Shown here: in pieces, positions 1,946-4,739 of the stretch
Layout of the letters: each line of letters begins with the position of its first letter
Position numbering within the stretch: the first letter of the stretch is position 1
Source: Beijerinckiaceae bacterium
GTDB lineage: Bacteria > Pseudomonadota > Alphaproteobacteria > Rhizobiales > Beijerinckiaceae
DNA length: 64,000 nucleotides
Assembly: GCA_965249685.1 (NCBI GenBank)
Contig: CBDFMN010000002.1
Span: forward strand, 8,511 to 72,510
Direction of reading: 5' to 3'
Program-made: the position numbers and the translations under genes
The notes under the pieces: generated by a model
Database searches by the model: none
What the model saw: only the letters and a program-made list of their open reading frames with translations
Told to the model about the DNA's origin: nothing

Positions 1946-2449
1946 CTACAGCCAGGCTTTCTCGACGCGGCCGGCGATCCCGTCAAAGGCTCCGTCCACC
2001 AGTTCGCGGTAGAGCAGCCGCGCGGCGTCGACCGGTCCGGGGAAGGCGAGGCGTCCCTCCGGCACGGGGAGAAACCCCATGCGGCCGTAGTACGGCAGGT
2101 CCCCGACGAGCAGCACCAGTCGGTGGCCGGCGGACCGCGCGGCGTCGAGCGAGCGGGTGACGAGCGCCTCGCCGATCCCACCGGAGCGGAAGGCGGGATC
2201 GACCGTCAGGGGGCCGAGCAGCAGGGCCGGCGCGCCGCCGCAGCGGATCGGCGTCATCACGTTCGAGCCGACGAGGAACGTGCCGACGCAGGCCACGAAC
2301 GACAGGCTCGCATCCACCGGGACGCCCTCGCGCAGCCGATAGGCCGAGCGGGCGTAGCGGCCGGGGCCGAAGGCGCGCGCGCTCAACCGCTCCACGGCCG
2401 GCCGGTCGGCGTCGGTCTGCGGCTTGAGAGTGAGGAGCAGGTCGACCAT
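1946..2449 (-). CDS. GNAT family N-acetyltransferase
   Basis: LLLGPLTVDPAFRSGGIGEAL acetyl-CoA motif A; VLLVGDLPYYGRMGF motif B. Confidence 0.9.
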   Translation of the reverse strand: MVDLLLTLKPQTDADRPAVERLSARAFGPGRYARSAYRLREGVPVDASLSFVACVGTFLVGSNVMTPIRCGGAPALLLGPLTVDPAFRSGGIGEALVTRSLDAARSAGHRLVLLVGDLPYYGRMGFLPVPEGRLAFPGPVDAARLLYRELVDGAFDGIAGRVEKAWL

Positions 2450-2459
2450 GGGGTGAGGC

Positions 2460-3146
2460 CTAGACCAAGTCCCTGCCCCTGCAAAGATCGAGTTCGGATC
2501 CCTGTTCGGATCCTTGCGAGGCGAGGGTTGCGCGGATGAGGTGCCGGCCGACGTCGAGCACGCCGCCGCGGACCGTGACCTCCTTGGGTCGATCGAGCCC
2601 GCCGCGCAGTCGCCGCCACTCGTGGTAGGAGTGGCGCCCGAGCGGCGAGAAGGTGGCCAGGCCCCGCCTCGCCGGGCGGCGGATCGTCGAGCCCGTGTTG
2701 ATCGCCGCGAGTTCCGCCCGCTCGGCGGTCGCGTGGAGCAGGCTCAGCGCGTCGAATTCGAGCACGAGACGCGCTCGCCCACGGTTGAGGCGCGCGCCGA
2801 GAAAACGCCTGGGCGCAAGCGCGTCGCACCAGAAGAACACGCGGGCGTTGAGCATCTGCAGCCAGTCCGCTGGCGTGAGGTGGTCGTCGAGGCAGCGTGC
2901 GAGCGCGACCTCGCTGAGCGGCCCGTTGTCGGTGATCTCCGCGGCGCCGTGAAGCGGATGACAGAGGCGCACCCGCAGCGCCCGCCGCTGCCGTACCAGG
3001 GCGGCGCGGGCCGCGTCCGGGACCTCGAACAGGCTTAGCAGGTGGCTCGTCGGCAGCAGCCCGTGGCGCAGGATGCTCGCGAGCGCGTCGGGCGCGGTGA
3101 CATGAAAGAGGCGGGGATGCCGCCGCGCGAAGTCCTCGGGCGACAA
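2460..3146 (-). CDS. DUF7002-type protein with DarT-like ADP-ribosyltransferase motifs
   Basis: Probable TTG start at 3146, preceded by TAAGGG; LFHVTAPDALASILRHGLLP, RVFFW and KEVTV motifs. The 5' part of the tracked ORF (3147-3569) is a shadow of the NUDIX gene. Confidence 0.65.
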   Translation of the reverse strand: MSPEDFARRHPRLFHVTAPDALASILRHGLLPTSHLLSLFEVPDAARAALVRQRRALRVRLCHPLHGAAEITDNGPLSEVALARCLDDHLTPADWLQMLNARVFFWCDALAPRRFLGARLNRGRARLVLEFDALSLLHATAERAELAAINTGSTIRRPARRGLATFSPLGRHSYHEWRRLRGGLDRPKEVTVRGGVLDVGRHLIRATLASQGSEQGSELDLCRGRDLV

Positions 3147-3154
3147 ATCGACCC

Positions 3155-3646
3155 TTACCAGTGGGGCGGCGGCGGCAGGTCGCCCGCGACCTCGTCGAGC
3201 CGGCGCCGCGTCGCGGCCGTCACGCCGGCGGGCAGCGCGTCGAGCGGAAAGAAGCCGCTTTCGGCGATCTCCCAGTCCTCGACCGCCCCGGCGATCACCG
3301 CGAAGCGGCGCACGAGGTAGCAGGCGACGTGGTCGCGCCGGACCGGGGCGTTGTGGAAGAAGCCGTGCAGGCGGGGGCGCTCCAGGCAGAGCACGCCCGC
3401 CTCCTCCCGCGTCTCGCGCACCGCGGCGGCCTCCGCGCTCTCGCCGCGGTCCACGCCGCCGCCGGGCAGGTACCAGCCGGGCGTGTAGCTGTGCCGCACG
3501 AGGAGGACGCGGCCGGCCTCGTCCAGCACCATGACGCGCACGCCGAGCGTCACCGCGCGGGTCCACCACAGACGCCCATGCAGGTTGGCGGCGGCGCGCG
3601 CGAGGCGGCCATGGCGTTTTCGTTCGGGTCCTTGCGTCGAGGTCAT
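3155..3646 (-). CDS. NUDIX hydrolase
   Basis: Nudix box [24 protein letters not shown]; ATG at 3646. Confidence 0.9.
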
Positions 3647-3833: not shown

Positions 3834-4739
3834 GTGACCGTCTTGGCTTTTATCCTCGCCCACCTCTCGGACGCCCACATCGGTCCCCTGCCCCCGGCGC
3901 GCCGCCGCGACCTGCTCGGCAAGCGGCTGACCGGCTACATCAATTGGAAGCGCGGCCGCTCCAGCGCGCACGACATGGACGTGCTCGGCGGCCTCGTCGC
4001 CGACATGAAGGCGCAGTCGCCCGACCATATCGCGATGACGGGCGACATCATGAACATCGGCCTGCCGGGCGAGTACATCCTGGCCGACGCCTGGCTGCGC
4101 ACGCTCGGCGAGCCCGGCTCGCAGGTGAGCTTCGTCGCCGGCAACCATGACGCCTACACGCGGGGGTCGCTGCCGACGCTGGCGCGGACCTTCGCGCCCT
4201 GGACCACCAGCGAGACCACCGGCAGGCCGGGCTACCCCTACCTGAAGGAGCGCGACGGCGTCGCCCTCATCGGCCTGTGCTCGGGCGTGCCGACGGCGCC
4301 CTTCATCGCGTCGGGCCGGCTCGGCGCGCGCCAGCGCCACGCGTTCGAGGTCATGCTGGCCGATACCGGCGCCCGCGGCCTGACGCGCGTGGTGATGATC
4401 CACCACCCCCCGCACATGCGCGGCTCCAGCGTCGGGCGGGGCTTGACCGACGAAGTCGCCTTCGCCGCGATCGTCGCGCGGACGGGCGCGGAGCTCATCC
4501 TGCACGGCCACAATCACCGCCCCTCCGTCGTCCACCTGCCGACGCCGAACCGCCCGGTGCCGGTCGTCGGCGTACCGTCGGCCTCGGCCGTCAAGGGAGC
4601 GACGGGGCGGCGCGCCGGCTACCACCTCTTCTCGATCGAGGGCGCAGGATGCGACGCGCGCATCGCGGCGCGGGTGCGCGGACTGCCCGCCGGGTCGGGA
4701 GCGTTCGACGACCTCGAGCCCCTTCGCCTCGACACCTGA
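3834..4739 (+). CDS. Metallophosphoesterase (calcineurin-like)
   Basis: DAH, GDIMN, GNHD, HH and HGHNH motifs; GTG start inferred. Confidence 0.9.
   Translation: MTVLAFILAHLSDAHIGPLPPARRRDLLGKRLTGYINWKRGRSSAHDMDVLGGLVADMKAQSPDHIAMTGDIMNIGLPGEYILADAWLRTLGEPGSQVSFVAGNHDAYTRGSLPTLARTFAPWTTSETTGRPGYPYLKERDGVALIGLCSGVPTAPFIASGRLGARQRHAFEVMLADTGARGLTRVVMIHHPPHMRGSSVGRGLTDEVAFAAIVARTGAELILHGHNHRPSVVHLPTPNRPVPVVGVPSASAVKGATGRRAGYHLFSIEGAGCDARIAARVRGLPAGSGAFDDLEPLRLDT

Follow-up and report, generated by a model that had tools for sequence, protein, structure and literature searches.

A DUF7002 gene between NUDIX and GNAT genes

This study concerns a 64,000-nucleotide stretch of a Beijerinckiaceae genome (assembly GCA_965249685.1, contig CBDFMN010000002.1, positions 8,511 to 72,510), the whole of which we call the window, and within it a gene that encodes a predicted ADP-ribosyltransferase (ART) of the Pfam family DUF7002. 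The gene is the middle one of three tightly packed minus-strand genes, preceded by a NUDIX hydrolase gene and followed by a GNAT acetyltransferase gene (Table 1). Eight bp (3154-3147) separate the NUDIX stop codon from the TTG at which DUF7002 begins, and 10 bp separate the DUF7002 stop codon from the GNAT ATG. In the encoded protein LFHVT..ALASILRHGLL occupies residues 13-31, RVFFW residues 102-106 and KEVTV residues 188-192. An earlier note on this DNA had given the open reading frame, both spacings and these motifs, all of which we verified on the sequence.

Table 1. Features of the DUF7002 locus, in coordinates of the window
Feature	Position	Strand	Evidence
DUF7002 (PF22531) gene, 228 aa, TTG start, TAG stop 2462-2460	2460..3146	-	Pfam, translation
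NUDIX hydrolase gene, 163 aa, ATG at 3646, TAA stop 3157-3155	3155..3646	-	PF00293, E 6e-21
GNAT acetyltransferase gene, 167 aa, ATG at 2449	1946..2449	-	PF00583, E 1.5e-5
Calcineurin-like metallophosphoesterase gene, divergent, start approximate; conserved flank marker	3834..4739	+	PF00149
Tandem 12-nt duplication (GTTCGGATCCCT / GTTCGGATCCTT) within the DUF7002 C-terminal tail (..GSEQGSEL..)	2492..2515		Repeat search; low pLDDT

At the level of sequence, the TTG is supported as the start of DUF7002: its column matches the aligned N-termini of homologues, and a TTG is also present, 6 nt past the NUDIX stop, in both relatives that share this gene order, two metagenome-assembled genomes (MAGs) described below. 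The public annotation of the MAG orthologue P0005 (L039/L040:5001-5624) uses an internal GTG start, which yields a product of 207 aa without the strand-1 segment that ends at the conserved His; from homology and from the conserved TTG at L039:4956, we place the true start 15 codons farther upstream.

Family membership and conservation

The Pfam search assigned the protein to DUF7002 over the entire profile (E 1.6e-57, 194.7 bits against a cut-off of 27, profile positions 1-195 of 195), and a scan at E ≤ 1 matched no other Pfam family. The DarT model PF14487 thus went unmatched and, because DUF7002 is the sole Pfam match, we place the protein outside the DarT family proper. No NCBIfam model was found for the protein, the DarT model of PADLOC gave a marginal match confined to residues 9-62 (E 0.0012), and a search of PHROGs returned zero matches. 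Sequence searches of the PDB with the single protein or with a 36-sequence profile produced only chance matches, to diaminopimelate dehydrogenase, which we rejected.

Close relatives number 277 cluster representatives in the 90% database, and the family as a whole 1,694 representatives at the 50% level, nearly all of them single-domain proteins of 200-230 aa. Among 129 family representatives 20 columns are conserved at ≥90%, and the window protein carries the consensus residue at 20/20; 22 residues are invariant over both subfamilies defined below, the cassette type included. The family motifs are present as H15-V-T (Hxx), F104-F105-W106 (FFW) and K-E189-V (xxE), and candidate catalytic residues are H15, R54/R55, D73, N100/F104/W106, N150, R161 and E189. 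Since it keeps all family-invariant residues, the window protein looks like an intact enzyme.

Of the family representatives, the top scorer is P0122, a metagenomic protein of 758 aa in which DUF7002 forms the C-terminal domain (residues 548-755) of a chemoreceptor with HAMP and MCP-signalling domains, either as a genuine fusion or through read-through in gene calling. In P. fluorescens (L021) and genome G098 (L129), too, DUF7002 has MCP genes less than a few kb away.

Relation to the published Lmac_3114 family

A new ART-like family, named after Lmac_3114 of Legionella maceachernii, was described by Krysinska et al. (BMC Genomics 2025, PMC12522546) as a distant DarT homologue of the H-Y-E clade with the motifs Hxx, FFW and xxE, predicted to act on DNA. 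No Pfam entry is cited in that paper, and the name DUF7002 was absent from the papers in a full-text literature search; because the homologue in the L. maceachernii genome is 50% identical to the window protein and has the published motifs, we infer that the Lmac_3114 family is Pfam DUF7002 (PF22531). The window protein resembles the published family in its full-length DUF7002 match, in its motifs and in taxonomic spread, and the three motifs singled out in the earlier note (H-x-T, FFW, x-x-E) are the very ones published for the family (PMC12522546). The family in Pfam and its DarT-like prediction in the 2025 paper are, then, already known.

Predicted fold and residue-level comparison with DarT

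An AlphaFold2 model built from the 36-sequence alignment reached a pLDDT of 87.8 and a pTM of 0.85, with block means of 58 (residues 211-220) and 44 (residues 221-228) in the C-terminal tail. The structural comparison with DarT that the earlier note had suggested was conducted with Foldseek and recovered an ART fold. The best match in the PDB was 8baq, E. coli C7 DarT1 with NAD+ (E 1.5e-5, probability 1.00), which was also the sole match below 1e-3; the next matches included Thermus DarT (7omw), M. tuberculosis DarT and Tpt1/KptA, as well as 7yk3, and the named matches in the top 50 were nearly all ART folds. A viral structure library yielded weak Tpt1- and DarT-like matches only. The model supports an ART fold for the DUF7002 protein, with DarT as its nearest solved relative.

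DarT1 and DarT2 are toxins that ADP-ribosylate thymidine and guanosine in single-stranded DNA. We compared a DarT alignment built from 13 genomic PF14487 matches with the 129-sequence DUF7002 alignment by hhalign, and obtained 154 collinear columns (E 2.3e-4) with a score of 33.7, whereas nine reversed or column-shuffled control alignments scored 8.6-23.5; an earlier hhalign run with 36 close homologues had aligned the N-terminus only (probability 31%). Using Thermus DarT numbering and the residue roles of DarT1/DarT2 from PMC11543638, H15 pairs with the strand-1 His of DarT, which binds the ribose of NAD+ (PMC11543638), and G29 with the conserved Gly after helix 1. R54, the neighbour of invariant R55, pairs with the catalytic Arg R51 of DarT2, and D73-x-x-P76 with the D-x-x-P ahead of the DarT PFY strand. 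T151, the neighbour of invariant N150, falls on the base-reading column (H119 in DarT2, Asn in DarT1), and E189 on the catalytic Glu (E160/E152). In this alignment, then, the His and Glu would align exactly to those of DarT and the Arg within one residue.

The likeness to DarT (DarT2 of Thermus sp. 2.9, 7omv-7on0; DarT1 of E. coli C7, 8baq) comprises the N-terminal Y/F-H-x-T...L..I...G-L common to both, a conserved Arg at the R51 position after a shift of one register, an Asn beside the H119 column and a Glu on the penultimate strand. Unlike DarT, DUF7002 has extra helices and strands (residues 79-106) and its aromatic motif II is placed differently. On the basis of the Pfam family, the rank of DarT1 as best PDB match and the collinear pairing of His, Arg and Glu, the description "DarT-like ART" that the earlier note had proposed stands as one of fold and motif resemblance; it does not extend to membership of the DarT family PF14487.

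The same fold matches bear on another possibility, namely that the protein modifies neither bases nor proteins but is a Tpt1/KptA-like enzyme that removes or caps phosphate on RNA or DNA ends in an NAD+-dependent manner, by chemistry of the 2'-phosphotransferase type, a harmless repair or maintenance activity for which no antidote would be needed. Tpt1/KptA structures occupy ranks 33-47 among the PDB fold matches, a phage 'RNA 2'-phosphotransferase' is the second match in the viral library, and PTS_2-RNA was reported as a close relative of the family by FFAS, HHpred and Phyre2 (PMC12522546). DUF7002 shares with Tpt1/KptA (PTS_2-RNA, H-H-h clade) the ART fold, the stand-alone bacterial gene, whose solitary context resembles that of bacterial kptA, and the richness in Arg, R55 and R161 being invariant and R47, R102, R156 and R160 additionally so within the solitary subfamily. 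However, the DarT matches are better by several orders of magnitude (1.5e-5 versus 0.2 or worse for Tpt1), and the DUF7002 family has an invariant motif III Glu, which the H-H-h clade does not (PMC12522546), and no conserved R-H-R-R tetrad. We therefore regard a Tpt1/KptA-like function as unlikely. R27-H28 was considered as a Tpt1-like 'RH' catalytic pair and rejected, as it is not conserved within the family.

Insertion history at the locus

The DUF7002 family was absent from 20 genomes of the same genus. An orthologue of the NUDIX gene was present in 15/15 same-genus genomes searched (58-71% identity), and all 13 same-genus loci that could be read had the NUDIX gene, a short spacer and the GNAT gene, with the phosphoesterase gene divergent upstream and no DUF7002. 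The NUDIX-GNAT operon that the earlier note had ascribed to relatives is thereby borne out, the two genes being adjacent in 13/13 loci.

Two MAGs (GCA_030012865.1 and GCA_030012885.1) alone share the order NUDIX-DUF7002-GNAT with the window. Their flanking genes are 82-83% (NUDIX), 77-80% (GNAT) and 91-92% (phosphoesterase) identical to those of the window, and the flanks of genus members without the insertion are much more distant (68-77% for the phosphoesterase). The DUF7002 proteins of the MAGs are 68% identical to the window protein; the synonymous divergence of the gene (dS 0.46-0.75) is comparable to that of its flanks, with a dN/dS of 0.22-0.36. In MAG GCA_030012865.1 an IS481-family transposase gene on the opposite strand (L019:6684-7619) lies between DUF7002 and GNAT and so interrupts the operon, though both genes are retained. 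We found neither a target-site duplication nor a flanking repeat at the insertion. On the simplest reading, a single insertion between the pre-existing NUDIX and GNAT genes took place in the ancestor of this genome and the two MAGs and was followed by vertical inheritance, DUF7002 having been kept, as its substitution pattern suggests, under purifying and somewhat relaxed selection.

Solitary and cassette subfamilies differ in gene context

We sampled 400 random Pseudomonadota species for DUF7002 and 301 genomes for DarT. DUF7002 was present in 4/400 besides the genome under study (~1%) and is thus rarer than DarT, found in 15/301. In 4/4 of these carriers a fusion of AAA-kinase and adenylosuccinate-synthetase-like parts lies directly upstream of DUF7002, and these cassette-type proteins are 25-35% identical to the window protein. 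The adenylosuccinate-synthetase domain reported next to ~60% of Lmac_3114 family members (PMC12522546) is thereby reproduced here as a neighbour of the sister, cassette subfamily; a P. aeruginosa operon of the family also carries AAA and NUDIX domains (PMC12522546).

We then took the 80 closest species-level loci and clustered into families the genes flanking DUF7002, two per side, called in high-GC loci by a GC1>GC2 frame filter with the DUF7002 gene fixed in place beforehand. These loci come from Acetobacteraceae, Paraburkholderia, Legionella, Caedibacter, Holosporales, Chlamydiales, Cyanobacteria, Verrucomicrobiota, Nitrospira and others, and their DUF7002 proteins are 47-67% identical to the window protein; with the MAG orthologues included, the group spans 47-68% identity across phyla. 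Unlike the majority of the Lmac_3114 family, neither the window copy nor any of the 80 (0/80) has the kinase/PurA-like fusion nearby; the genome under study holds a single distant match to it (26% identity, on the main contig C3), which is probably an ordinary adenylosuccinate synthetase. No neighbour family occurs in more than 6/80 loci, the commonest being GST, PhzF, DUF1272, DUF3574, PEP mutase and aldose epimerase, and precomputed annotations of five single homologues agree that contexts vary. A conserved two-gene toxin-antitoxin or defence architecture was likewise not found over the 80 loci. Because the fusion and any recurrent neighbour are missing from its 80 closest loci, we assign the window protein to a solitary subfamily, which is distinct from the kinase/PurA-like cassette subfamily; the kinase/PurA-like neighbour is a common feature of the family and not an obligatory one.

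The gene contexts also bear on an Arr-like enzyme that would ADP-ribosylate a small molecule, whether antibiotic, xenobiotic or metabolite, and would account for a non-toxic gene that stands alone in bacteria of soil and water, without calling for an eraser. The variable solitary contexts often include detoxification-type neighbours (GST in 6/80 loci, aldo-keto reductase and PhzF, with TetR or glyoxalase at single loci), and a GNAT gene adjoins DUF7002 in the window. Such families are very common, though, and none is consistent (6/80 at most); moreover, Pfam and PDB searches revealed no similarity to Arr. Identity of 47-52% is kept across phyla, including the obligate intracellular Chlamydiales, Holosporales and Caedibacter, and this conservation argues for a universal cellular target and against an environmental compound. 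An Arr-like role thus appears quite improbable.

A genuine DarT-type toxin or defence effector, held in check by the GNAT, by very low translation from the TTG or by a factor encoded in trans, seems to us the least probable of the alternatives, and by some distance unlikely. The closest fold is that of a toxin, the gene is a rare accessory one by the counts above, it evolves faster than its flanks (68% versus 77-92% identity), and an IS481 element adjoins it in one relative. Yet across the 80 loci no partner of the gene is conserved, defence islands do not surround it and mobile elements do not recur beside it, the PADLOC match to DarT is marginal and PHROGs gave none, and the gaps on either side of DUF7002 are too small for a hidden small open reading frame. 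In the relative with the insertion sequence between DUF7002 and GNAT the DUF7002 gene is still retained, and purifying selection acts in three lineages.

Several contexts recur at low frequency or occur once. At L125 (genome G033:C4, ~1065200-1066700) a DUF7002 homologue of 40% identity has an NAD kinase gene (PF01513/PF20143) immediately downstream in the same orientation, a single instance of an NAD-metabolism neighbour beside a presumed NAD-using enzyme. A gene of the PEP-mutase/isocitrate-lyase family lies upstream of solitary DUF7002 at L090, L106, L108 and L021, and a small zinc-ribbon protein, DUF1272, is encoded near it at L110, L113, L114, L090 and L021; these recurrences involve a few distant taxa (Pseudomonas, Hoeflea, Kiloniellaceae and Cyanobacteria) in numbers too small to interpret. 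At L129 (4607-4795, minus strand, genome G098) a 62-codon stop-to-stop frame with a NUDIX box (..GGKLKDDDSFEAAAVRERCEDTGI..) lies between a cassette-type DUF7002 gene and a gene with NYN and OST-HTH/LOTUS domains. By its sequence it looks like a decayed NUDIX gene, consistent with the NUDIX-containing Pseudomonas cassette (PMC12522546).

The NUDIX neighbour and the question of an eraser

The earlier note had remarked that no macrodomain or NADAR gene lies nearby, and this holds genome-wide: the whole genome (100% complete) yielded no match to Macro, NADAR or ARH domains in searches that did recover their positive controls. In this respect DUF7002 differs from DarT, since the genome encodes neither a DarG nor a NADAR partner. 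The neighbouring NUDIX protein falls into no specific subfamily, its best PDB relatives are of the generic MutT/DIPP type, and no NCBIfam model for an ADPRase was matched above cut-off (ADP-ribose diphosphatase, 12.6 bits against a cut-off of 248).

The idea of a two-gene writer/eraser or toxin-antitoxin module, in which the upstream NUDIX enzyme would serve DUF7002 as a dedicated eraser or antidote by cleaving ADP-ribose pyrophosphate, draws on several observations. The two genes lie on the same strand 8 bp apart, and the TTG is conserved 6-8 nt past the NUDIX stop in all three carriers, which suggests translational coupling. NUDIX sequences accompany the family elsewhere, in the P. aeruginosa cassette (PMC12522546), as the NUDIX-box remnant at L129 and at one Holosporales locus, and of the known families that remove ADP-ribose, the three searched (Macro, NADAR and ARH) are all missing from the genome. 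Against this, the NUDIX gene is vertically inherited and predates the insertion, standing beside GNAT in the same-genus loci that have no DUF7002; only 1/80 related loci has a NUDIX gene beside DUF7002, about the chance level for so common a family; and the protein scores below every ADP-ribose pyrophosphatase cut-off. Cleavage of an ADP-ribose adduct by a NUDIX enzyme leaves a phosphoribose scar, so that the substrate is not fully restored, which also counts against an eraser. With the NUDIX gene found genus-wide beside GNAT, with or without DUF7002, and bearing no ADP-ribose-pyrophosphatase signature, the writer/eraser pair put forward in the earlier note is not supported, and we give it little credence; the adjacency looks more like an accident of the insertion site. 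The data agree better with the other suggestion of that note, a non-toxic ART co-opted into a housekeeping operon, its non-toxic part being suggested by the absence of a partner.

Proposed activity of the DUF7002 protein

The reading that we favour, with a probability of roughly 0.6, is that the window encodes an intact, solitary member of DUF7002 with a DarT-like ART fold, inserted once, which acts as an NAD+-using transferase on an anionic substrate and is not a lethal toxin. The protein would most likely bind NAD+ and transfer ADP-ribose to an anionic substrate, at best guess a nucleic acid or nucleotide. The proposed active site would comprise the strand-1 His, the Arg of the NAD-binding loop, the FFW aromatic strand and the Glu of the penultimate strand, and an Asn-Gly and Arg-rich loop would take the position of the substrate (ARTT) loop of DarT. 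An anionic substrate is suggested by the invariant Arg and Asn in this ARTT-equivalent loop, by the basic character of the family (median pI 9.4) and by the nucleotide-metabolism partners of the sister subfamily. DUF7002 is probably translated at a low level, from the conserved TTG coupled to the NUDIX stop. Because the gene is maintained without an antitoxin in a genome without Macro, NADAR or ARH, its product is probably not a lethal DarT-type toxin, and because it persists without any partner, the enzyme may be harmless or present at a low level.

Several points weigh against this assignment. TM-scores to DarT are modest (0.43-0.46) and the hhalign probability is just 45%. The register is uncertain by one residue near R54/R55 and N150, and motif II is ambiguous, since hhalign puts the PFY strand on residues 73-78 and PMC12522546 names the FFW at 104-106. 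The published docking of NAD for the family fell in a non-standard position (PMC12522546). A basic pI is to be expected regardless in a genome of 67-72% GC, and the only argument for non-toxicity is that a partner is absent. What the analysis shows is the family to which the protein belongs, its fold, the conservation of its residues, the history of the insertion and the lack of partners; that it uses NAD+, transfers ADP-ribose, acts on a substrate of this type and is not toxic we infer for an enzyme that is itself predicted.

A more specific and rather doubtful proposal is that solitary DUF7002 enzymes are DarT-like and need no eraser, because the ADP-ribose or related NAD-derived group that they would attach to a nucleic acid or nucleotide present in all cells is not lethal; in the lineage of the window, the neighbouring NUDIX enzyme could have been recruited secondarily, through translational coupling, to clear ADP-ribose products. 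A non-lethal mark on a universal target would explain both the ~50% identity kept from Acetobacteraceae to Chlamydiales and Cyanobacteria and the tolerance of the gene without Macro, NADAR or ARH.

DarT enzymes reportedly showed that ADP-ribosylation of DNA bases can be reversible, and genome editing already makes use of them. With ~1,700 clusters at 50% identity, DUF7002 is a family of considerable size that is predicted to be DarT-like. To what is known of it we add, modestly, a solitary cross-phylum subfamily set apart from the kinase/PurA-like cassette type and a dated single insertion into a housekeeping operon. We further add the persistence of the gene under purifying selection in a genome that has none of three known ADP-ribosylhydrolase families (Macro, NADAR and ARH), which argues that DUF7002 enzymes are not lethal toxins. 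The NUDIX-ART-GNAT arrangement is a simple three-gene operon that could be cloned whole.

Probable assembly redundancy and the C-terminal tail

A 31-kb stretch is present twice in the assembly, at C1:4170-35545 and C2:1-31337, with 99.2% identity; it covers the window from position 1 to ~22800, both contigs concerned are small (37.5 kb and 88.5 kb), and the two DUF7002 copies differ by 2 residues. The repeat probably reflects assembly redundancy or strain heterogeneity and no true duplication. Since it lies inside this nearly identical stretch, the second DUF7002 copy is not independent evidence.

The C-terminal tail of the DUF7002 protein is poorly conserved and entirely different in each of the three syntenic orthologues, and the 12-nt duplication within it in the window contains BamHI-like GGATCC sites. 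The tail may perhaps derive from earlier intergenic DNA.

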